A DNA stretch of 64,000 nt. Origin: a virus. Both the position numbers and the translations under genes were made by a program. Location: IMG/VR virus record IMGVR_UViG_3300035684_000001, positions 64,001-128,000 of that record; one strand, 5' to 3'. The notes under the pieces were generated by a model that was given only the letters and a program-made list of their open reading frames with translations, was not told the DNA's origin and did no database searches. This document shows, piece after piece, positions 5,597 to 58,019 of this stretch; the stretch's first letter is position 1, and each line of letters starts with the position of its first letter.

Positions 5597-6916
5597 TTAA
5601 GGATGTGGTACAAGCTTACCGTTTTTAACGATAGCTCGCATACTGTCATTTTCTGTTTCCGCAAATCCCATTAACTTATAGAAAGTAACTCGCTTTTCTT
5701 TATAACCATCTTCTGCGTGTGGATGACAATCGAAAATTGTTCCATCTGGCGATTTTTTGACATCTTCTTTAAGAAGCGCCCGCAATTTATACATAATAGC
5801 TTTACTCTCTTCAGGTTTCAATGGCTTTTTGTCAAATGAATCGTTAACTTTAAAATCAATAGTTTTCATTAAAAATTCAATACCTTCCTCGGCTTCTTCT
5901 GTACTTGAATTTACAGTAAACGCTACCTTATTTTTTCCAACCTTAAATGTAGATATTGTACTATTTATTTCAATGTCACCTAGTGCAGATTTTAAGATTT
6001 TTTTCTGTTTTACCTGCTTAAAATTTTCTACTAATGATTTTGTTAAAGTTTTTGCTTCTTTCTTTAACCCTTCAGCAACAATTTTTTTTGCTCCCAATTC
6101 TGCTATTTTTTTAGCTGCTAATCTAATAACTTGGTCAGATGCAATTCCTGCTACTAGCAGAACACCAACCTTGAGGACTGGATTGTCAACTTTGGCTTTG
6201 TCTAACCCTTTTTCTGCACCTTTATAAACTGCTTCTCCTAAAACAGCACTAGCAATTGCGTGGTTTAACGATTCTTTCAACAATAGTCCTATCGTAACAC
6301 CTATACCAACATTGATTGCTATGTTCGTAACGAGTGGAATAGATGCTCTAATAGACTTACCAACTAATTCCTGTTGCTGCGGTGGCGTGTATTTTTCGGG
6401 GTTTGCCAAAGCTTCTGTGTAGAGTTGATATTTGGCAACAGCAAATTCCATTTTTTCTGCAAACGAGCTATTTGCGAGTGGCTCAAGTCCATCAGATTTA
6501 CGAATAGCTTGGGCAAGCGGGTCTTTGTCTCCCCCATAATCTTTTGCCAATTTATCCGCAGATTGTTGAACAAAGCCATCTATTTTTTTCTCTAATTCCG
6601 GAGTTTTTTCTATAGCTTTTGATGTAGCCTTGATTATTTCAGCTATCCCCATTCCTGCAGAAAGTCCGACTCTTTCTCTGAATCCTGGGTCTGTAAGGGA
6701 TAGTTTAATCACATCTTTTGTGATGCCGACTGTTTTAACTGTGGAATCAATTACATCCTTTGCCTCTTTAGTTACTTTAACTGTACCACCACCAAATCTA
6801 CCATTTTCACCTCGGTTTACCCAGTCAGGGTCTTTGTCCCAACCTTCAGCTTTGATCGTCAATTGAATTCCGAGTAGCTGTAATTGGGCTTTTGCTACCG
6901 ATCCTCTTAAATCCAT
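5597..6916 (-). CDS. Putative virion-associated protein with N-terminal R..NGRF motif and C-terminal GNAT-like domain
   Basis: ORF 5597..6934, likely ATG at 6916. Contains DWVNRGENGRFGGG, a hydrophobic middle, and C-terminal RVTFYKLMGF (FY..xGF, GNAT-like). Confidence 0.5.
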   Translation of the reverse strand: MDLRGSVAKAQLQLLGIQLTIKAEGWDKDPDWVNRGENGRFGGGTVKVTKEAKDVIDSTVKTVGITKDVIKLSLTDPGFRERVGLSAGMGIAEIIKATSKAIEKTPELEKKIDGFVQQSADKLAKDYGGDKDPLAQAIRKSDGLEPLANSSFAEKMEFAVAKYQLYTEALANPEKYTPPQQQELVGKSIRASIPLVTNIAINVGIGVTIGLLLKESLNHAIASAVLGEAVYKGAEKGLDKAKVDNPVLKVGVLLVAGIASDQVIRLAAKKIAELGAKKIVAEGLKKEAKTLTKSLVENFKQVKQKKILKSALGDIEINSTISTFKVGKNKVAFTVNSSTEEAEEGIEFLMKTIDFKVNDSFDKKPLKPEESKAIMYKLRALLKEDVKKSPDGTIFDCHPHAEDGYKEKRVTFYKLMGFAETENDSMRAIVKNGKLVPHP

Positions 6917-28742: not shown

Positions 28743-28961
28743 TTAATTACTAAACCTCGCACAATTTTAACATTACGTGAGGTTTAGCTTACTAAAAGCA
28801 GCATCTTAAATTCATTATTTAGGATGTTGCTTTTTTGTTGCTTGAATGTGTGTCTTGACGATCACCCCTTATAAAAAAACATAGATTTAGCCTACTTATT
28901 GCAAAATGCGCCACCCAGCTTTTAGGCTGGGGGCGCATTTTGCTTTGAGCCGAAAATGAAA

Positions 28962-47131: not shown

Positions 47132-47686
47132 ATGGAATATTACCTAGATACTGAGTTTATTGAATTAAGCGAAAATAAAACAATCGACTTTATCTCGATT
47201 GGAGTTGTAGCAGGGGATGGACGGGAATATTACGCAATCAGCGAAGAATTTGATGCAAGTACAGCCTCTGAATGGGTTGTGGAAAATGTATTGAATAAAT
47301 TGCCACCACGTCCAGGCTTGTTCAAATCTACAGAAGTGTCACTTCGACAGCGATACGAATCAAAAGCCTGGAAATCGCGAAAAAGAATAAAAAAAGAACT
47401 TTTGGATTTTATTGTTCCAGACGAAAATGGGATTGAGTTTTGGGCAGGTTGGGCCTCTTATGACTGGGTAGTGTTTTGCTGGATATTTGGCTGTATGATC
47501 GATCTCCCCAAAGGCTACCCCAATTATTGTAATGATGTAATTCAGTGGATGAATCAACTGGGGTTAAAACGAGAAGATCTACCATCAGAACCAAAAGACG
47601 CTCACAATGCACTAGCTGATGCTCGATGGGTGAAACAGGCTTACGATGCACTCAAAAAATATGACAATAATGTATACAACTTTTAG
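47132..47686 (+). CDS. DEDDh 3'-5' exoribonuclease (Rv2179c/RNase T-like)
   Basis: YYLDTEFIE...WASYDWVVF...HNALADARW. Confidence 0.85.
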   Translation: MEYYLDTEFIELSENKTIDFISIGVVAGDGREYYAISEEFDASTASEWVVENVLNKLPPRPGLFKSTEVSLRQRYESKAWKSRKRIKKELLDFIVPDENGIEFWAGWASYDWVVFCWIFGCMIDLPKGYPNYCNDVIQWMNQLGLKREDLPSEPKDAHNALADARWVKQAYDALKKYDNNVYNF

Positions 47687-47775: not shown

Positions 47776-48294
47776 TTATACATCTTCAAAAATAAATTGT
47801 TGTATACCAGAAAGTGAAAAAAGTCCAGACTGTGTTTTGCCACTAACAAATAAAGAGTAATTACAACTATTTTCATCCCAATTTTGTACGAATGCTACAT
47901 AGTCAACATCTAGAATTTTTTCGTGTAACGGATTCATCCGCCAACGACAGCACTGCGACACTTTTTGTACTGCTTCTGCCAGCGACAGCACTTCAGGAGT
48001 TAAAAATAAAGTAAAATCAGCATAACCCGAAGAATGCACAGTACCGCTAACTCTGCGTTTTACAGAAAGTTTCAACGAGTATAGTTTATTAAAAAGTTCT
48101 ACCTCTAATAGAATAGTTCCAACGAAATATTCATACGATTTTTCGTTTAAACCCTCTAATGCAGCAGCACATTTAAAAGCACTTGGATCGAAATCAAAAA
48201 ATATCAAACGATTGTTAACGCGATTAACATTGTAGAGATGCGCTGCTATTTTTTCAGCAATTTGCTCAGACTGTAGTATGACGACTTTTTTCAT
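47776..48294 (-). CDS. Hypothetical protein (paralog of 62455..62847)
   Basis: IAEKIAAHLY..FDPSAFKCAAALEGLNEKSY versus MAKKVQAHLY..FDKQAFDCVIALEGLNEQDY. Confidence 0.65.
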   Translation of the reverse strand: MKKVVILQSEQIAEKIAAHLYNVNRVNNRLIFFDFDPSAFKCAAALEGLNEKSYEYFVGTILLEVELFNKLYSLKLSVKRRVSGTVHSSGYADFTLFLTPEVLSLAEAVQKVSQCCRWRMNPLHEKILDVDYVAFVQNWDENSCNYSLFVSGKTQSGLFSLSGIQQFIFEDV

Positions 48295-48361
48295 TTTTTT
48301 CTATTGATTTATTAAAATTATATACGATCATTTGTAATGCTCAACTAACTTGACACAAAAA

Positions 48362-48396
48362 AACATCTCTCAATCATTATCCGATTGAGAGATGTT
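48362..48396 (-). terminator. Intrinsic terminator-like inverted repeat
   Basis: AACATCTCTCAATC...GATTGAGAGATGTT just past the 48420 gene end, with a T-rich tract on the minus strand. Confidence 0.7.
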
Positions 48397-48419
48397 AGTA
48401 GCGAAATCACTAGATATTG

Positions 48420-49223
48420 CTAATCAAAATTATCAATGAAACAGCCGCAACCACCAAGTGCCTCAAAATCAAAGGAAAGCTGCAAGGGAGCTGACTGTAT
48501 TTCCTCCCTGAACGCTTTAAGAGTAAGACCTTTAGTTACTCCATTTTTTGTGCGCCGCAAGATACCGACTGAATCATTATTTATCGATTGCAAAAACTCT
48601 TGTTCTTGTTGTTCGTGGTGCGCGTAAACATCTGGTAGATATTTTAATAAATTTCGGTAGTGTTTTAACCCTGCTTTCGTGCAAAAGCCACCACAATTGG
48701 CATGAGCAAAGCCCATGTCGTAAAGCCTAGGTTGCTTAAGGTTGTTCAGTTTGAGTTGGCGGTTAATTTCTTGCTTGTCTACCCAGCGATCGCCCCAGCA
48801 GAGTGGAGCTTCTACCTGGAATGGGTGCCAGTTTTTGGAGATCGCCTCCATCCGTTCCAACTCTTCAAATCCAATTCCAAAGTATAAAACCGTGTCATCA
48901 GGTGAAAAGTTAGCATTGATCCAATTTTCGCAAGGTTTAACCTTAAGCTCGATCGAGCAATCAGATGCGCGATGATTAATAAATCGTTTTTCATTAAAGA
49001 TATCCCACGGATTCCGACCGTCTTTAACTTTGATCAACTGACCACCAACGTTTTTCGCTGCTTCTTCTAAAAATCGGTAGTTGTCGGGGTCTTCGATAGT
49101 CGTGTCCGCAAAGACTAGCCACAAGTTATCTGTGCCAAACTTCTGAGCTATTATCTTAGCGGCAAACCATGAAGCTTTGCCGCTTGAAAAAAACACTACG
49201 TGGTTTTGTGTTGGTGCTGACAT
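48420..49223 (-). CDS. Phage-type PAPS-reductase-like (PP-loop, Cys-rich) protein
   Basis: VFFSSGKAS (PP-loop), FADTTIED, CSIELK..PC, GFAHANCGGFCTKAG, GGCGCF. Confidence 0.75.
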   Translation of the reverse strand: MSAPTQNHVVFFSSGKASWFAAKIIAQKFGTDNLWLVFADTTIEDPDNYRFLEEAAKNVGGQLIKVKDGRNPWDIFNEKRFINHRASDCSIELKVKPCENWINANFSPDDTVLYFGIGFEELERMEAISKNWHPFQVEAPLCWGDRWVDKQEINRQLKLNNLKQPRLYDMGFAHANCGGFCTKAGLKHYRNLLKYLPDVYAHHEQQEQEFLQSINNDSVGILRRTKNGVTKGLTLKAFREEIQSAPLQLSFDFEALGGCGCFIDNFD

Positions 49224-49433
49224 TGTTTTGTGTGTTGATTATTATTCAATACAACAATTATACTACGAATGTAGTTAAATTGCTGTCAATAATTAACTAA
49301 ATTATTTTTGTTTACAACCTTTAAAATGATTTTATCTGCTAGAAGATCCCATTGATGATTCTAAAAAAATAATCCTACCAAGGATCGAACTTATTGACGA
49401 CTGAATCTCGGTTGATATTGAAAGATTAACCCC

Positions 49434-49533
49434 TTGACACTCTTCGGCCTAAAGGTGCGAGGATTCTTTCTTCATAGGGACACCAATGCGTTTACCCTCA
49501 GAAAGCTTCTTGACCGTATGTCCTACGGCTGCA
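49434..49533 (-). ncRNA. omegaRNA/reRNA-like scaffold, distal copy with intact right end
   Basis: TGCAGCCGTAGGACATACGGTCAAG...GAGGGTAAA...hairpin-GTGTCAA; the predicted guide is the flank GGGGTTAATCTTTCAATATC. Confidence 0.65.
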
Positions 49534-49590
49534 ACCACCGCGTCGAGATACTCTTTGACAACACTTGTTTGATATTTACGATTACCGGGT

Positions 49591-49710
49591 TTGACAGACT
49601 AGCACGATCGGCGTCTTGTTTGGGAAGCCTCAAGTTAAGCTTCTTGGTTCGCAGGGATTCCAACGAATTTACCCTCTCCAAGCATCTTGACCGTGTGTCC
49701 CACGGCTGCA
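49591..49710 (-). ncRNA. omegaRNA-like scaffold, proximal copy overlapping the tnpB 3' end, with degenerate right end
   Basis: TGCAGCCGTGGGACACACGGTCAAG...GAGGGTAAA...AAGAAGC, a direct repeat of the distal copy at a 177-nt offset. Confidence 0.5.
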
Positions 49711-50840
49711 AGTCCTCGTATTAGAACTACTTGTGCTGCTGCTACATCCCTATCGGTTGTGTAACCACAGCTAGAACATAAATGTACGCGCTCCGACAAT
49801 TCTTTTTTCCCGGTTTCTACTCCACAACTAGGGCAAATTTGACTTGTCTTGTGGGCGCTTACTTTTTGGAAGTACACGCCATGCTTGAAACAGGCTTGAC
49901 CTAAAATATTAAAAAACTGACCCCAGCCTGCGTCCAAGCAATGTTTCGCTAGCATCGCCTTAGCCAACCCAACGAGGTTCAAGTCTTCGACAAAGATCGT
50001 GTCCGCGTCTTTGCATAGTTGGTGTGCCAACTTCCAGTGCCAATCTTTACGGCAGTTGGCAACGTACTCGTGAAACTTAGCAACCTTTTTTTGAGCTTTC
50101 AGTCTATTTTGGGAACCCGGTTTTTTGCGACTGACGCGCTTTTGCAGCAATTTAAGCTTGCGTTCGGCGTCAACGAAAAACTTTTGGCGCTTGACTAAAA
50201 GACCGTTAGATGTTGCGATGAAGTTTGTTAGGCCAACGTCTATCCCAAGAGCTTCGCCGTGCGGCATGACTGACGGTACGGAAACATCCCATTGTAAGGT
50301 CAGCATCACATACCAGCCGCTAGCTTTGCGGACTACTCTTGCTTGCTTGATAGTTGCACCGTCTGGAATAGGGCGCGACTGGTGAAATTTAACCAAACCA
50401 ATTTTCGGCAATTTTACTGCACCGTTCTGAATTGGGTTAACTCCCAATTGGGGGAACACAAAAGACCGCATTGCTCCCGCTTTCTTGAAGCGAGGAAAGC
50501 CGTGCTTCTGTTCCCACATACTGACGAAAGCTTTTTCAAGTCTTCGCAACGTTTGCTGCAAAACGTGTACTTGTACAGCTCCCAAGTCAGGTATCCTTGC
50601 CCTAGCAGCAGTTAAGTGTTTGCACTGACTGAGGTAAGTTGGTCGCTTTGCTTCAGCAGAAATGATAAATTCAGAGCGGATAGAGCAAGCGTTAACCTGA
50701 CAGCTACGAGATTGAAACCAATGCTTTCTCTCCGCCAGTGCGTAGTTGTAGACGCGACGACACTGTTCCAGCCAGTCTTCAAAGATGGCTGCCTGTGCAG
50801 TCGTTGGTTTCAATTTGAATTCGTAGGTTAGATTTAACAT
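49635..50840 (-). CDS. tnpB: RNA-guided endonuclease TnpB
   Basis: YEFKLKPT (HTH_OrfB), GIDVGL / VEDL / DRD RuvC D-E-D triad intact, CPSCG..CSSCG zinc finger; GGAGG RBS. Confidence 0.95.
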   Translation of the reverse strand: MLNLTYEFKLKPTTAQAAIFEDWLEQCRRVYNYALAERKHWFQSRSCQVNACSIRSEFIISAEAKRPTYLSQCKHLTAARARIPDLGAVQVHVLQQTLRRLEKAFVSMWEQKHGFPRFKKAGAMRSFVFPQLGVNPIQNGAVKLPKIGLVKFHQSRPIPDGATIKQARVVRKASGWYVMLTLQWDVSVPSVMPHGEALGIDVGLTNFIATSNGLLVKRQKFFVDAERKLKLLQKRVSRKKPGSQNRLKAQKKVAKFHEYVANCRKDWHWKLAHQLCKDADTIFVEDLNLVGLAKAMLAKHCLDAGWGQFFNILGQACFKHGVYFQKVSAHKTSQICPSCGVETGKKELSERVHLCSSCGYTTDRDVAAAQVVLIRGLAAVGHTVKMLGEGKFVGIPANQEA

Positions 50841-51063
50841 TTGCTTACCCTCCTTTCCGAATTATAGAACATTGAATAAGGACTGAACCGATTATTCACG
50901 ATTCTTAACTAAATCCACTCTAAAAGGGCAAGGTTGTACCCAATCTTTTAGTTAATCATTTGTTCTGTGTTGCTTTTTTGGTCATATATTAGCTGTATTA
51001 CAGCCGTAGGACGCTTGGCAATAAGTAATGAGTGATTATTCTGTTTTCGATATTAATAGTGTC

Positions 51064-54000
51064 TTACCTACTAGAAGAATTTGTTGATGATTCTAAGACG
51101 ATAAGTCTAGAAAGTATCGAACCTATCGATAGCTGAATCTCGCTTATTATTGAAAGATTTACGCCATCAACAAAAACACCATCCTCGTTTATTTCGATTT
51201 CATGCAACGTTTCAGGTTCCATTCCTTCTTTAGGGTCAGACAAAGATCGGAAAATAACTTTTTTCCCCTGAATATACACAACTTCTGGCGTACATAAAAC
51301 TTCATTACAAAAAGAACCATCTTCATTAAACGATTGGATATGTGCATTGCGACCTTGAAGCGCAAACCTTGCCGCCTGTTTATCCCAGACAATCGGTTCT
51401 TCTGGTTTATCATCATCATCGTCATTGTCGTCAATCTCAACCGGGGGCTTATTGTGATCGCCAGAAAAGAATGAACTTAGCGACAGCAACCCGCTCTTGG
51501 GATCGAGCAAGACTCCCACACCTTTGGAACCGTCCTCAGAGCCGTTGCGGAACACAGTTGTACCGATTGACGACAAGGATGTTCCAGATCCGCCCATGCT
51601 CAGCATTCCGCCCAGACCTTTAGAAAGTAATTTCTTAGGACTAATGCTCAGAGAAACCTTGCCCCCAGGCCCGAGTAACTTTGTCACCTTCCCTAACATC
51701 TGAAGCCCCGATTTGCCGTCCATACCCAAAAGTTTCAATCCTTGTTCAGCCATCGCCATTTGAGAACCACCGGGTCCTAACAGTTTCACAAAATCCATGC
51801 CGATTTGCATCGCCTTTTTCCCGTCAGGACCCAACAGCTCAGCAACTTTCTCGGCAAGCTTCAATTTAGAAACTCCATCTGCTCCTACCAACTGAGAGTA
51901 AGTTTTTACCATTTCCAGCAGTCCTTTACCCGACGGACCGAGCATTTTAGCGAGTTCTTGCGTAACAACCGTCATTGCCCCCTCCTTACCGCCAGCCCAA
52001 ACAGTTGCCGATTTTTCATCGGCAAAGATATTTGTGCGGATCAACTCCCCGATCGCATCCTCGACTTGCGGACCCAGTAATTCCCCTATTTTTTCGTTGA
52101 CGTAGCTGATTGCAGCTTTCTCACCCGCACCTTTCATGCCGATGTCATTTTCCCAAGCGAACATTTCTGTCCTGACTTTTTTGCCATCTTTCTCAATGGC
52201 TGGGCCAAGGATTCCCGATTTTACTGGATCGACAAAGCTACAAGCACCATCCCCGCCAGATTTCATTGCCACAGTTCCATTTTTTTCAGCACACATGGAA
52301 CTTCTTAGTTTAGATTTTTTTGGTTTTTCTAACTCTTTTTCCTTTGCTTCACCTCCTTTTTCCATTGACTTTGCAACAAAAGGAGTGAACTTAAATCCAG
52401 CAAAATCGCTAGGCGGCTCATAATCATCGTCGTCCTGAGTTGCATCGTTGCGAATTGGAGACAGCATTTCTGCACGATTTGCCCCAACAACTGTCATAGC
52501 TCCCTCGCCCGGAGCAAACATAGCTGTTTCTTCGGATGCTGCCTGCATCCCCGATCGAGTCTTTTCTCCATTGATTTCAATCGCCGGTCCGTGCATTCCA
52601 CTTTTGGTTTCATCCGCTGAAAAGCAAGCTCCGTCACCGCCAGATTTACCGCCTACCAATCCTTTCCGATCGGCAAACAGACAAGTCCTCAATTTTTTCT
52701 TGGCTTCTGCATCTGCAAATTTGCCCGTTTTACCTTCTTCCCGATCGCCCCCCTTCTTAAATTTGACCGACTTGAGGTCAAATTCAAACCCATCATAGTC
52801 GCTGGCGGGAGGATCGTCTTGTTCATCTTTAAACTCGCCTTCTTCTCTTTCTGGACCAAGAACTTCTGCCCGATCGCGCGCAACGTAAGATATTGCACCG
52901 TCAGCAGCCTCGCTTCCTGCTTCCTGAGCGAATACAAAACTACCAGTCCGCAGTTTTTTACCGTCTAATTCAATTTCCGGACCGAAAGTCTCGGCTTTTT
53001 CTAGGTGGACGATCGATCCCGCGCCGCGTCCTCCCGATAAAGTTCCAGCCCCGCCGTAACCGTCCGCGAATAAGGAAGTTCGTACCATCCGGTCTTTTTC
53101 TTCTAGATCGTCGTACTTGGGCCGCTTTTTAGCTTCTTCCTGTTCCCCACCTTGTTTGCGACGCTGCCCTTTAGAAAATATTTTGTAACCACCTTTTTTA
53201 CCTTTACCTGGTTTATCTTCCTCGCGTTCTGGTAATTCCCCATCTTTGCGTTCCGGTCCTAGAATCTCTGCCATGCGTCGCTCTACGCGAACGCCGCCGC
53301 CTTTATCCCCTGCGGTCATACCTCCGCCAGCTTTGTCGGCAAACATAGACACTCGAAGGTTGGGAGCAAATTCCGGACCCATTATCTGAGCACCTTCTTT
53401 GCCAATGCGGGCGATCGCCCCTTTCTCACCGCGATTTGACTCCATCTGCACGTAAGTTTCGCGGGCAGTAATCCTAGCCCCTTTGGGTTCGTCGGGTATT
53501 GCGCGAAGGAGTTTGCTGTAGTCGTCGATTGCCGACTCTAGAATTGGAATCAATTTTTGCGCCAGTTCTTTGCAAGATTTAGGCAATACTTTTTCTACAG
53601 CATTTTGCAGGATATCATCGGAACTGTTGGTGATTGCAAAATGCTTGGCAACTTCTTTGAGCGGTTCAACCAGTATGTCTTTGTTAAAAAGTACGTCATC
53701 TCTAAGCAATAGAAATGCCAAAGCTTCTAACGGTGCAATCCCTTTGATACTTTTCTGCCCCTTCAATACTGCACTTAAAGTTTTTTCGGTTTTTTCAATT
53801 AATCCTTGAGTTACTTCCCCAAATAGTATTGATAGTGGAGATTCCCCCGCCACCAATTTATCCACGTTTTTTTTATCTTCTTCGATTTGTTTCGCTTCTC
53901 GATCTTTGTCGGCTAGCTGTTCTTTTGTCAAAAATTTAGCAGCTTTTAAATCTTGATTGCTGAACACCCGAGAAACTGCTTGTTCCGTCAAGGTTTCGTC

Positions 54001-55470
54001 GCCTTTGTGTAACTGGTAAACGCCCATATTGCCCTTAGCAAATTCAGAATATTCCCCGAGCTGCCCGATCGCCCCTTCTACCCTTTCCGGCAGCTCGTCC
54101 CACCACTCTTTCTCTTCTTTGATAGTAAATTTTTCTAAACGCTCTGGCTTGGGATTGATGGTATCTTCCATACCTTTGATTTTGTCCTGCAATCGCATTC
54201 TGACGATCGCGTCAATCGAATGCCAACCGTTCGGCACTATCTCGGCTATTAGTGCTTCCTTCTGCAAAACAACGTCGTACCTCAGCGCGTCCAGTGTGGG
54301 TACAATCGCGTCCAACCTTGCAAACAGAGCCTTTTTTTCCTCAGCGTCTAGCAGTGCCAGCAGTTTTTTGAGATCCTTCGGTATCATCCCCAGTGCTGTT
54401 CCGACGATCGCGCTGCCGGGTTTATCCTTGGCGACTGATTTTTCTGCGATGTTAACTATTTTGTCTAATTCAATTCTCAAAGCTTCTCGCAGTTGACCGT
54501 CTAAGCTTTCGCCCAGATCGACAGCAGGGGCTGTCTTTAGTTCCTGCAAGATTCCAATTCCTTTTGGCAGGTTCACCGCTACCCCATCTCGCAGCCTCCG
54601 CAAAACTGCATTAGCTTCGTAAATATAGTGCGACGTGCCAAATGCTCCGCTTTCAAAACCGTCAGTCAGTTTTTCTAGTTGTTTTAACAGTTTGACCCCT
54701 TGATCTAAATCTGCCGATAAAAATCCCCTAGCTTCAGAGAGCAAACGCGAATGGCGGCGCAAGGGTCCTTCTAAATGTGCATTTTTGCTGTTCAGACTTA
54801 ACTGAGATTTTTCGGCGCAGGCGATGGTAAGCGTCCCGTCTTTATTCAAATTAATGGCAGCACCGCCGAGCGATCGCGCGTTCAGATTCCCTTCCGGCGA
54901 TGCAGTGAAACTGGCATTGTCGTTCTCGATGCTCGCAGCGCCGTCTTTCATCAAATGGACTCTAGCCTTGCCCGGTGATTCTTGGAGGATAGAACCATCT
55001 CCAGAAACCGACTGAACGGCTTTACTCGCAAAAGTCTTGAAATAGGAGCCATCTTTGTCGTTGTTGATTTCAATCGTCCCGCCTGCCGACGCGCTGCCTG
55101 TGACTCCGTGCGATCGGTCGAAGTCTGGATGCGGGCGATCAACTCGGTTGTGCAAACACCCCATTATTATCAGTCTGGTAGGGTCGCCAAACATCGGACT
55201 TAAAACAACCAAACTCCCTAATCCCAGCGGACTGTGAGAACCTCCGGGTACGCCATTTGCCGTGAATTGTTCCATTACCGGAATCCAGCCGTCATCTTCG
55301 TTAGGTAGATAAGCAGTTTCGGAAAGCAAGTCACATTTGACTCTGGCGCGACCGATCTTCTCTGGATCGTTTACGTCTACGACTGTTCCCGGCATCCAGC
55401 CCATAACAAAGCCTTCTTTGATGTGCGTTGCCTGGACTTTTTCTGGCGTTATTTTGGATTCAAAGCTCAT
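51064..55470 (-). CDS. Giant baseplate central spike (gp5/gpV/VgrG OB-fold N-terminus), 1,468 aa
   Basis: GTVVDVNDPEKIGRARVK..GWIPV..LGSLVVLSPMFGDPTRLIIMGCLHN (OB fold), then beta-strand repeats, a helical insert and many (A/S)xxLGP repeats. Confidence 0.85.
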   Translation of the reverse strand: MSFESKITPEKVQATHIKEGFVMGWMPGTVVDVNDPEKIGRARVKCDLLSETAYLPNEDDGWIPVMEQFTANGVPGGSHSPLGLGSLVVLSPMFGDPTRLIIMGCLHNRVDRPHPDFDRSHGVTGSASAGGTIEINNDKDGSYFKTFASKAVQSVSGDGSILQESPGKARVHLMKDGAASIENDNASFTASPEGNLNARSLGGAAINLNKDGTLTIACAEKSQLSLNSKNAHLEGPLRRHSRLLSEARGFLSADLDQGVKLLKQLEKLTDGFESGAFGTSHYIYEANAVLRRLRDGVAVNLPKGIGILQELKTAPAVDLGESLDGQLREALRIELDKIVNIAEKSVAKDKPGSAIVGTALGMIPKDLKKLLALLDAEEKKALFARLDAIVPTLDALRYDVVLQKEALIAEIVPNGWHSIDAIVRMRLQDKIKGMEDTINPKPERLEKFTIKEEKEWWDELPERVEGAIGQLGEYSEFAKGNMGVYQLHKGDETLTEQAVSRVFSNQDLKAAKFLTKEQLADKDREAKQIEEDKKNVDKLVAGESPLSILFGEVTQGLIEKTEKTLSAVLKGQKSIKGIAPLEALAFLLLRDDVLFNKDILVEPLKEVAKHFAITNSSDDILQNAVEKVLPKSCKELAQKLIPILESAIDDYSKLLRAIPDEPKGARITARETYVQMESNRGEKGAIARIGKEGAQIMGPEFAPNLRVSMFADKAGGGMTAGDKGGGVRVERRMAEILGPERKDGELPEREEDKPGKGKKGGYKIFSKGQRRKQGGEQEEAKKRPKYDDLEEKDRMVRTSLFADGYGGAGTLSGGRGAGSIVHLEKAETFGPEIELDGKKLRTGSFVFAQEAGSEAADGAISYVARDRAEVLGPEREEGEFKDEQDDPPASDYDGFEFDLKSVKFKKGGDREEGKTGKFADAEAKKKLRTCLFADRKGLVGGKSGGDGACFSADETKSGMHGPAIEINGEKTRSGMQAASEETAMFAPGEGAMTVVGANRAEMLSPIRNDATQDDDDYEPPSDFAGFKFTPFVAKSMEKGGEAKEKELEKPKKSKLRSSMCAEKNGTVAMKSGGDGACSFVDPVKSGILGPAIEKDGKKVRTEMFAWENDIGMKGAGEKAAISYVNEKIGELLGPQVEDAIGELIRTNIFADEKSATVWAGGKEGAMTVVTQELAKMLGPSGKGLLEMVKTYSQLVGADGVSKLKLAEKVAELLGPDGKKAMQIGMDFVKLLGPGGSQMAMAEQGLKLLGMDGKSGLQMLGKVTKLLGPGGKVSLSISPKKLLSKGLGGMLSMGGSGTSLSSIGTTVFRNGSEDGSKGVGVLLDPKSGLLSLSSFFSGDHNKPPVEIDDNDDDDDKPEEPIVWDKQAARFALQGRNAHIQSFNEDGSFCNEVLCTPEVVYIQGKKVIFRSLSDPKEGMEPETLHEIEINEDGVFVDGVNLSIISEIQLSIGSILSRLIVLESSTNSSSR

Positions 55471-56306: not shown

Positions 56307-56603
56307 TTAAACCATTTGTCTGTCTTTTTTTGCCCTTAACATTGCTTCACGAACGACTGAAGTTGATTCTTTTTCGATCGCCCCATTTTTTAGGGCTAAT
56401 TCCCTTTTGCTGGGAATCAAATCATAGTGAGGCAAAAAAGCGTGATTCTGAAAATACGATTTTTTCAAGCCTATCTTCAGTGCCATTTGGTGTAACTCTT
56501 CAATATTTCCATCATCGGAAAAAAGATGACACCATCGGTTGCCAAATCTTGATACTGACTTACTTTTTGGTTGGATTGTTTGTAAGCTGTCTACACAAAT
56601 CAT
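56307..56603 (-). CDS. DUF4031-like protein
   Basis: ICVD..WCHLFSD..EELHQMALKIGLKKSYFQ..PHYDL..KRELALKNGA. Confidence 0.8.
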   Translation of the reverse strand: MICVDSLQTIQPKSKSVSRFGNRWCHLFSDDGNIEELHQMALKIGLKKSYFQNHAFLPHYDLIPSKRELALKNGAIEKESTSVVREAMLRAKKDRQMV

Positions 56604-56678
56604 AATTTTTGTTAACAGTAATCGAGTAAGGTAATTTTTTAGAAATGGGCGATCGCATAATTGCCCAACTCTAAAATG

Positions 56679-56903
56679 TCAATCTCTGAATTTACTCCAC
56701 CCGGCTACGACACATCGTTTTGTGTAGTCAGGATTTGAAACTTTTTCGGCAATTAAAACGCTACCTCTTTGATCTACCAACCTCCAAGCTAATGGATGTT
56801 TTTTTGCTTCTTCGTGACTTTTTATTTCGTAAGGAGTAATGTGTTCAAAAAGGATCGTTCCTTTAGGGTGAGGCCAAAACTTGTATTTTTCGTTATCGTT
56901 CAT
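56679..56903 (-). CDS. Hypothetical protein
   Basis: ORF 56679..56966, likely start MNDNEK at 56903. Confidence 0.5.
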   Translation of the reverse strand: MNDNEKYKFWPHPKGTILFEHITPYEIKSHEEAKKHPLAWRLVDQRGSVLIAEKVSNPDYTKRCVVAGWSKFRD

Positions 56904-56996
56904 CGTTGTCACTGTTTTGTTTGTTTTTGCTAATATGTTAACGGGCGATCGGTAATTTAACACCAATTGTGGATTTTATCAAGTTGTTATTCTATT

Positions 56997-58019
56997 TTAG
57001 CGTCTGCTCTTAGATTTTGCTGCTGCTTTGTCCATTTCTTTCTTCCGATCCTCTCTCAGTTTGGATAATTTCTTTATCCAAAACTCCCTAGAGCTGGGAG
57101 TCATATCAAGGACATCGACTTGAGGAGAATCTTCGTCATGAAAAGCAAATTTTAATTCATTAAAGTATTTCTCGACAGAGCCAATTTTTTGATTCGGTCG
57201 CGGTGGAGTGAAAGTTGAAAAGTAAAAGTCGGCATCAACGGCTGCTATCCACTCTCCCGCACAGCTCGGACAATCCATTGGAATAGTTTGCTCAGGACCG
57301 AACCATACCTCCCCGATCGCCCGCTGAATTTTATTGTAATCTCGATAATGCAACTTATCGAGCATTTGATCGGGCATGGAGATTAAGGCATCTGCTGCCC
57401 GCAACTTAACTTTGGAAAATGCGTCGCTCGCTTCCGAGGAAACTTCTTTAAATCTTGGGGGTTCCCAGTAACACTTGTCGGTATCATCGACTGGACGGGT
57501 TAGCTGTACGTGAAACAGTGGAGGGGCAAGAAGTGCGGCACATCCTCGGAGTACCACGGACGATAAATCGTGAGTATATATGTCGCCAGACTCTTTGTGG
57601 TTGATCCTGTGACCGCAGTAAGGACAGGTACAGGGAATCGCAATGTCCGGCCCCGCCCCCTTGCACCTAATGTTTAACAACAAACTCAAAATGTCGGCCA
57701 AGTACATCCCCTGAAACAAGCGCGGGGGAGAAGTATTTAGCTTGTTAGCTACTTCGGCAAGCGGCCATCCGTCGATCGTCTCCACAATTTGCGGCAAGAA
57801 CTGTGAATAAATCCGAACTAGGCGATCGGGAGTTTCTCTGTTTTCATCCTCAAGCCGTCCGAGCAACACGTCGTGATGGCCTATGTACGGTTTGAGGGTG
57901 TACTCGCGGAGGCGATCGCCGTTCAAAAAAATACCCAGCGGAAGGTTCTGTCCCCACTGATACAGCTCCCGATCTTGAACAGACAGACTGCTATAATCAA
58001 ATGATTTAATCACTCTCAA
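56997..58019 (-). CDS. T4 gp26/gp51-like baseplate-hub / tape-measure assembly chaperone
   Basis: DILSLLLNIRCKGAG..CTCPYCG and DCPSC (gp26-like), C-terminal VLDMTPSSREFWIKKL (gp51-like). Confidence 0.65.
   Translation of the reverse strand: MRVIKSFDYSSLSVQDRELYQWGQNLPLGIFLNGDRLREYTLKPYIGHHDVLLGRLEDENRETPDRLVRIYSQFLPQIVETIDGWPLAEVANKLNTSPPRLFQGMYLADILSLLLNIRCKGAGPDIAIPCTCPYCGHRINHKESGDIYTHDLSSVVLRGCAALLAPPLFHVQLTRPVDDTDKCYWEPPRFKEVSSEASDAFSKVKLRAADALISMPDQMLDKLHYRDYNKIQRAIGEVWFGPEQTIPMDCPSCAGEWIAAVDADFYFSTFTPPRPNQKIGSVEKYFNELKFAFHDEDSPQVDVLDMTPSSREFWIKKLSKLREDRKKEMDKAAAKSKSRR

Follow-up and report, generated by a model that had tools for sequence, protein, structure and literature searches.

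Does a TnpB nuclease that is followed by two tandem omegaRNA-like scaffolds work with two guides, or is the pair of scaffolds a product of how the element was assembled? The question is raised by a locus in the stretch of DNA analysed here (the window, 64,000 nt), which covers bases 64001-128000 of a linear viral record of 188.5 kb with an estimated completeness of ~67%. The record is a cyanophage genome. We gathered loci carrying the same scaffold family with a degenerate pattern (>240 loci), and nearly all of those in named genomes lie in filamentous cyanobacteria, among others Nostoc, Anabaena, Nodularia, Calothrix, Scytonema, Microcoleus and Symploca. Given this distribution, the host of the phage is very probably a filamentous cyanobacterium. 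On the minus strand a tail spike gene (55470-51064) is followed by a leader of ~220 nt, by tnpB (50840-49635) and by the two scaffolds, which we refer to as proximal (P) and distal (D). The features of the locus, in this order, are as follows.

51064-55470, minus strand: tail/baseplate central-spike gene, 1468 aa (Pfam Phage_base_V), with 84.5% DNA identity to the gene of a related phage (locus L008).
50955-51165, minus strand: copy (a) of a flanking duplication, comprising the spike-gene end after TTGAT, with its stop at 51066-51064, and intergenic DNA up to ATGAT.
50955-50958, minus strand: TGAT, the transposon-adjacent motif (TAM) at the left junction; six left junctions of the sublineage read TGAC or TGAT, and the site in the spike gene reads TTGAT.
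50841-50954, minus strand: left end of the element and leader, collinear with the left ends of loci L003, L004, L005, L009 and L057.
49635-50840, minus strand: tnpB, 401 aa; both the RuvC and the zinc-finger motifs are intact, and the protein has Pfam matches and a full-length match to ISDra2 TnpB.
49591-49712, minus strand: proximal scaffold (P), 86.8 bits in covariance model R1; its core (49712-49641) overlaps the region encoding the TnpB C-terminus.
49536-49590, minus strand: inter-scaffold spacer (b), taken as the first guide in a preliminary description of the locus; 47-56% identity among four composite elements, no target found in the sequences searched.
49434-49535, minus strand: distal scaffold (D), 107.9 bits in R1 over model positions 1-102, canonical and free of insertions, ending in GAGTGTCAA.
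49219-49433, minus strand: copy (c) of the flanking duplication, a start-less open spike-gene end of 33 codons with its stop at 49334-49332, and an intergenic promoter region.
48420-49223, minus strand: intact PAPS-reductase-like gene (Pfam PAPS_reduct), homologous to L008 6415-8522.

The related phage, IMGVR_UViG_3300036939_000082, has the same spike and downstream genes as the window with no tnpB in between. Where the window has the tnpB element, the L008 locus carries an additional ORF of 212 aa (5646-6284) between the spike and PAPS-reductase-like genes. Further along the window, a Pfam scan identified a homologue of the Rv2179c-like 3'-5' exoribonuclease (47132-47686, plus strand), and a 172-aa ORF without a Pfam match lies at 47776-48294 on the minus strand.

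The protein encoded by tnpB, which ends in a TAA stop at 49637-49635, scores above the Pfam cut-offs for HTH_OrfB_IS605, OrfB_IS605 and Cas12f1-like_TNB. Residues 3-393 align to ISDra2 TnpB (8exa) with an E value of 5e-35, and the three motifs of the D-E-D triad (GIDVG, VEDLN and DRD) line up with those of solved relatives. The preliminary description had called the RuvC triad intact and tnpA absent, and both statements are borne out: the gene is full length, and no Y1 or serine tnpA was found in the 188.5 kb record, with its estimated completeness of 67%. Three cyanobacterial genomes that carry the scaffold family contain between 3 and 16 Y1 TnpA matches each. As the phage has no tnpA of its own and family-bearing genomes do encode Y1 TnpA, it is plausible that the element would be mobilised in trans by the enzyme of the host. 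The element is a tnpB-only member of the IS200/IS605 family and occupies window positions 50954-49434 on the minus strand. At six left junctions of its sublineage either TGAC or TGAT immediately precedes the left end, and its TAM is therefore about TGAY, close to the TTGAT of ISDra2 (PMC13565253). An alternative left boundary at TGAC followed by CAAAAAAG (~50975), hinted at by L003, L005 and L009, was set aside. We prefer 50954 because the homology between copies (a) and (c) reaches ATGAT and because L004 starts in the same way, with TGAT followed by TAA; the boundary is uncertain by ~25 nt. In fold, triad, scaffold and insertion directly 3' of a TAM, with no duplicated target and with a vacant counterpart, the locus has the attributes of a TnpB (OMEGA) system, for which RNA-guided cleavage is predicted.

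The scaffold occurs twice at a spacing of 177 nt, as had been noted before. The two copies, at 49711-49641 and 49534-49464, are 71 nt each and 79% identical (blastn E 6.6e-14). To model the RNA we aligned the scaffolds of 98 non-redundant cyanobacterial relatives from CTTGCAGCCG to GAGTGTCAA, a span of ~102 nt, and built covariance model R1 from this alignment. The consensus contains five helices with 96% of cells paired. Double-sided changes number 260, compared with 74 in shuffles, and the pairing collapses once the partners are slid. Helix 5, the last of the five, shows covariation and is 90% paired over the 98 family members. Given the E value of the repeat and scores of >85 bits for both copies, a chance repeat is ruled out. 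An Rfam scan of window positions 48000-52000 with E up to 1 matched no family.

Within this model the two copies behave differently. D folds completely and ends, as first described, in its hairpin followed by GAGTGTCAA at 49434. P pairs throughout helices 1-4; its helix 5 is down to 2 pairs around a 37-nt insert. The terminal region of P (49640-49591) is non-canonical and finishes with GTCTGTCAA at 49591, in agreement with the different hairpin and later end previously reported for the proximal copy. The covariance fold that had been proposed for both copies is thus complete for D and partial for P, from which the terminal hairpin is missing. We also observed a solo terminal hairpin of ~36 nt with the GAGTGTCAA tip (GAATCCCCACGCCTTTAGGCTGGGGAGTGTCAA) and no scaffold core, in four copies in the phage genome outside the window (genome positions 181036-181071 minus, 28915-28950 minus, 188392-188426 plus and 947-978 minus). 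Each of these solo tips could be a remnant, or else a small hairpin with a function of its own, for example as a TnpA site or a terminator.

Which of the two scaffolds marks the end of the element? A three-way alignment of the intact spike-gene ends of both phages with the DNA after D shows that homology starts exactly after TTGAT in the genes and, on the side of the window, exactly after the GAGTGTCAA of D. Since the TCAA of D abuts the spike-gene homology exactly, D is, judged from this alignment, the true right end of the element, with a guide that starts GGGGTTAATCTTTCAATATC. The first ~20 nt of copy (c) form this D guide. A second full copy of the element (L004) is located elsewhere in the same related phage, with the order left end, tnpB, P, spacer and D. 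The whole unit (L004 3883-5376) is one precise insertion, and the matching vacant site is found in the phage studied here, between CCACATGAC and AACTCTCAC at genome positions 56803/56804. The composite as a whole is therefore a single precise insertion.

Two rearrangements were noticed around these insertion sites. A segment of ~530 bp that holds the L004 insertion site is inverted between the phages (L004 3598-5630 compared with 56347-57154 of the present genome, G000), such that the flanking blocks of the L004 segment match the minus strand of G000 and the inner block matches the plus strand. In the window, positions 49288-49321 on the plus strand hold an inverted, ~80% identical copy of the TAM and the first ~25 nt of the left end of the element. 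This inverted copy sits just beyond the stop codon of copy (c) and suggests that the hot spot had once before received an insertion, oriented the other way.

To see how common the doubled scaffold is, we scanned ~250 loci of the family with nhmmer. Tandem scaffolds were found in only four of them: the window, L004 (identical to L012), L006 (identical to L009) and a metagenome contig, L057. In the L006 locus an internal deletion has spared the left end, P with 117 nt of the tnpB 3' end, the spacer and D. In the four composites the DNA between the scaffolds measures 55-105 nt. All four D copies read AAGAAGCTT where 98/98 family members read AAGATGCTT. The D-specific change, T to A, turns a conserved Met codon (ATG) into Lys (AAG) and is permitted only outside the ORF. 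That the four copies share a change at a column otherwise invariant in the family argues for the composite having arisen once. At the core positions D is identical to other family members at 61-65/69 and to its own P at 50-56/69. Since D is closer to other members of the family than to P, it was most likely acquired from a sibling element and not copied in place from P, as far as these alignments can tell. The suggestion of a nested insertion of a non-autonomous sibling, made in the preliminary description, therefore comes near to the data in that D belongs to another lineage than P and is the true end. Its variant in which the insertion went into the gene of the sibling, so that the spacer would be the decayed 3' coding end of the sibling tnpB, was rejected, as the spacers of all four composites (4/4) showed no likeness to such sequence beyond that of shuffles.

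The same four composites allowed us to compare how strongly each part is conserved. Identity among them is 89-97% in the P core, 84-92% in D and 47-56% in the inter-scaffold DNA, compared with ~67% at the third codon positions of tnpB. Because D is non-coding and yet well above the level of the third positions, the outer, ORF-free scaffold is under clear purifying selection. The spacer drifts at about the neutral rate; the residual likeness between the spacers of different composites is borderline (p 0.06-0.12 in shuffles). Among codons for the same amino acid, 82-91% are identical in the P core and 60-74% in the rest of tnpB (three pairs, not independent of one another; Fisher p 0.10, 0.054 and 0.005). 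This excess hints at a continuing use of P, either as RNA or in the form of structured DNA. In the four inter-scaffold segments TGTCAA occurs six times against an expectation of 0.13, and these tips lie at conserved offsets after the core, at +20/21 and at +49 to 57. Pairing in helices 1-4 is 100% in all eight scaffolds (four P and four D), and the differences between P and D are fully compensated. The P copies of L004 and L057 fold a long terminal hairpin ending in TGTCAA, which those of the window and L006 do not.

The reading that we favour, and consider probable, is that the element is a composite whose doubled right end is of hybrid origin: D would be the end that works, and P an inner copy in partial decay. 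D is a complete omegaRNA scaffold and right end that sets the boundary of the transposon, and its guide would be the 3' end of a spike-gene allele after TTGAT. P would represent the 3' end that this tnpB lineage had at first. The core of P would have been kept since it encodes the TnpB C-terminus, and possibly also under a constraint at the RNA level, and its terminal hairpin and cleavage tip would have decayed in the window copy. The 55-105 nt between the scaffolds would be fossil DNA that travels with the element. We infer a history in which a P-type element was joined once to the right end of a sibling and has moved as one unit since, probably via a host Y1 TnpA acting in trans. The coding strand contains no terminator-like or promoter-like site between P and D, which makes it likely that tnpB, P and D are co-transcribed. 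TnpB would then load mainly the D scaffold with its flanking guide, and as D lies outside the ORF, excision of the omegaRNA would spare the coding part of the mRNA. Some observations run against a decayed P. Its core keeps every pair of helices 1-4 and has the excess of synonymous conservation, the TGTCAA tips persist, and the P copies of L004 and L057 retain the long terminal hairpin. Nor does the spacer, which might record how P and D were joined, show any detectable likeness to tnpB coding DNA.

The role of the D guide brings in the DNA on either side of the element. A diverged direct repeat of ~211 nt lies on both sides of the element (51165-51039 against 49433-49306, 72.7% identity, E 4.6e-20), with a weaker collinear extension to ATGAT at 50955 (p ~0.01-0.03). 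In the other copy this weaker extension reaches the start codon of the PAPS-reductase-like gene. The final 33 codons of the spike gene are copy (a), which completes that gene, and the duplication leaves both adjoining genes intact. Copy (c) has a promoter-like TTGACA-18-TAGTAT at 49289-49260. A duplication of this kind may have come, we infer, from an unequal crossover of two diverged phages in which the element occupied positions ~211 nt apart, one in the spike gene at TTGAT and the other at the ATGAT beside the downstream start codon. The product of such a crossover would keep the element and spare both genes.

The favoured reading is compatible with a further possibility, namely that phages use the element against one another as a cassette for RNA-guided homing or competition. 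Directed by the D guide, TnpB would cleave the spike alleles of co-infecting relatives after TTGAT. Copy (a) would be spared by its mismatches, and the outcome of repair would be a transfer of the cassette or the elimination of the rival. Phage-to-phage homing by TnpB has been put forward in the literature as a proposal only (PMC13565253). The search with the outer 20-mer, as the preliminary description had advised, did return spike-gene alleles: the D guide begins exactly at the spike-gene target, and the resident copy (a) and the L008 spike gene each present TTGAT with a 16/20 match, the mismatches in copy (a) falling at guide positions 3, 6, 19 and 20. The frame of copy (c), open over 33 codons and identical to the L008 gene end at 28/33 amino acids, points to a sequence that was recently part of a working allele, and the sparing of both flanking genes by the duplication also fits such a cassette. 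However, a match to the pre-insertion site is built into every TnpB guide, and so the match alone is nothing special. The mismatches in copy (a) lie at synonymous positions and may be mere drift, and the comparison rests on one related locus. In the search for related phages we found no phage with a perfect target for the D guide; for the spike-gene target or an occupied site the search gave the known relative alone, the one further match (L258) being unrelated and due to chance. We regard homing as a tentative explanation of what the D guide does, one that is doubtful at present and that can stand together with the composite element.

The D guide also gave many matches with 4-5 mismatches in a conserved tnpB coding motif (GGGGTCAATTTTTCAATATC). 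These were discounted because they amount to a single coincidence repeated over homologous loci, with no TGAY before the motif. In the window this motif (GGGGTCAGTTTTTTAATATT, 49905-49935, minus strand) resembles the spike target and D guide at 15-16/20 positions, again with no preceding TGAY, and the likeness is probably a coincidence.

Could P supply a second guide? If P and D both became omegaRNAs loaded by one TnpB, P would provide a fixed guide that is carried along and D a site-specific guide from the flank, and the locus would be a minimal array in a mobile TnpB element with an active nuclease. Much of what was described above would suit this. Both scaffolds match the family model with helices 1-4 intact in 8/8 copies and P/D differences compensated, the P core has its excess synonymous conservation, the TGTCAA tips are kept at fixed offsets, and co-transcription from P to D is likely given that no terminator-like site intervenes. 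The layout persists at four sites, one of them a derivative with tnpB deleted, and other systems offer precedents for omegaRNA arrays and for standalone omegaRNAs that act in trans (PMC10691335). Against it, the P copy of the window has lost helix 5, and coding for the TnpB C-terminus accounts for at least part of the conservation seen in the P core.

The would-be inner guide itself also speaks against two guides, as it drifts neutrally and is different in all four composites. The preliminary description had pointed out that the sequences after the two TCAA ends resemble each other. In the window this holds weakly: spacer (b), after GTCTGTCAA, and flank (c) align over ~40 columns with a local score of 13, which is reached by 0.2-0.5% of shuffles before correction for ~19 comparisons. 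It does not extend to the other three composites, in which no likeness between spacer and flank was detected (p 0.65-0.96 in shuffles), and in the window spacer (b) shows no likeness to the other target alleles, copy (a) and L008. A homology of the spacer to the spike-gene target in all composites was rejected as well, the window copy being the only one to show it (p 0.88-0.96 for the others). We searched for targets of the inner 20-mer from two possible starts, and none turned up whether or not a TAM was required. The phage genome and ~250 loci (~1.8 Mb) gave noise matches only, with 4-5 mismatches and no TAM; no target was found in a phage collection of 50,697 records; and among 401 Nostocales genomes there were three matches with per-genome E values of 0.001-0.007, about what is expected by chance. 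In an array each guide should have a plausible target, which the D guide has in the spike gene and the inner spacer lacks. The idea of one nuclease with two related guides is therefore not supported, with an inner guide that drifts, no target for it and a weak likeness (p ~0.002, uncorrected) confined to the window copy, and we consider a working two-guide unit unlikely.

A combination of the last two proposals, in which an outer omegaRNA would be aimed at spike alleles for homing or elimination and an inner omegaRNA with a fixed guide would serve the same mobile, nuclease-active TnpB, is in our estimation improbable. If true, the locus would represent a naturally occurring omegaRNA array of two units that has not yet lost its mobility and whose working scaffold is already uncoupled from the ORF, and an array of this kind would fit an early step expected on the way from TnpB towards Cas12. 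An in-place tandem duplication of the 177-nt unit of scaffold and flank at the spike site, followed by divergence with P held by coding constraint and D by RNA constraint, would account for the 177-nt period spanning scaffold and spacer, for the register of spacer (b) with flank (c) over ~40 nt and for an ATG to AAG change in D that only a position outside the ORF permits, but it is very improbable given that many family members are closer to D than P is, that the differing compensated pair states both pre-exist in the family, that the same P/D pair occurs at three other unrelated sites with spacers unlike their flanks, and that the spacers of the other composites are unlike the spike gene (p 0.88-0.96).

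The favoured composite element can be placed among known systems. It resembles ISDra2 in its full-length homologous TnpB (E 5e-35 to 8exa), in an omegaRNA scaffold that overlaps the tnpB 3' end, in a guide taken from the DNA flanking the right end, in a right end finishing with TCAA and in its TAM (TGAY/TTGAT here, TTGAT in ISDra2; PMC13565253). It departs from ISDra2 in the absence of tnpA from the element (IS1341-like), in being housed by a phage genome, and in having a doubled right end to which a second complete scaffold has been added beyond the ORF. Standalone trans-acting omegaRNAs and omegaRNA arrays were described by Altae-Tran et al. (PMC10691335), where duplication of the omegaRNA segment is discussed as a route to CRISPR arrays. 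The arrays known from that work belong to immobilised, mostly nuclease-dead clades of Bacteroidota derived from TnpB/Cas12f. The present locus shares with them more than one omegaRNA scaffold per effector (PMC10691335) and differs in being a mobile element with an intact nuclease and only two units of different lineages, in which the inner tip has decayed and the inner spacer drifts neutrally.

The internally deleted L006/L009 copy and the solo right-end tips scattered in the phage genome are reminiscent of non-autonomous IS200/IS605 derivatives of the PATE/MITE type. Composite ends made from sibling elements are typical IS debris. Unlike PATE/MITE-like derivatives and nested insertion sequences, however, the composite is conserved and still moves as one unit, with clear purifying selection acting on the outer scaffold. 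A likeness also exists to the free-standing homing endonucleases of T4-like phages (Seg/Mob, intronless homing), in that a nuclease gene lies between conserved phage genes, with its target in a neighbouring essential gene and a resident allele that differs from the target. Here recognition would be RNA-guided and not protein-based, and cleavage and homing are hypothetical. Related tnpB genes with 68-74% DNA identity are present in the Nostocales phages A-1(L), vB_NspS-kac65/kac68 and vB_NpeS-2AV2, the latter being Nodularia phages, and the tnpB of cyanophage A-1(L) is transcribed during infection (bioRxiv 10.64898/2026.02.14.705889). A doubled scaffold and a placement at the end of a spike gene have not been reported for these phages.

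What is new at this locus, a variation on known elements, is that a doubled right end with the working scaffold outside the ORF is found in an element that is conserved and has kept its mobility. Known omegaRNA arrays are found in immobilised, mostly inactivated lineages, whereas here the doubled scaffold persists in an element transposing at four sites. The locus thus offers a natural test system for whether a second scaffold leads to a second guide, for whether a scaffold outside the ORF relieves the conflict between mRNA and omegaRNA, and for whether a phage-borne TnpB acts as an RNA-guided homing or competition nuclease against alleles of structural genes. If the inner copy is inert the arrangement is ordinary IS debris, yet it would remain useful as an illustration of the origin and spread of composite right ends.

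A minor observation concerns the opposite strand of the right end. The tip TGTCAA has TTGACA as its reverse complement, and it thereby creates -35-like boxes and TTGAC TAM-like sites on that strand; in the window a promoter-like TTGACA-16-TACGAT (49555-49582, plus strand) points antisense into tnpB.
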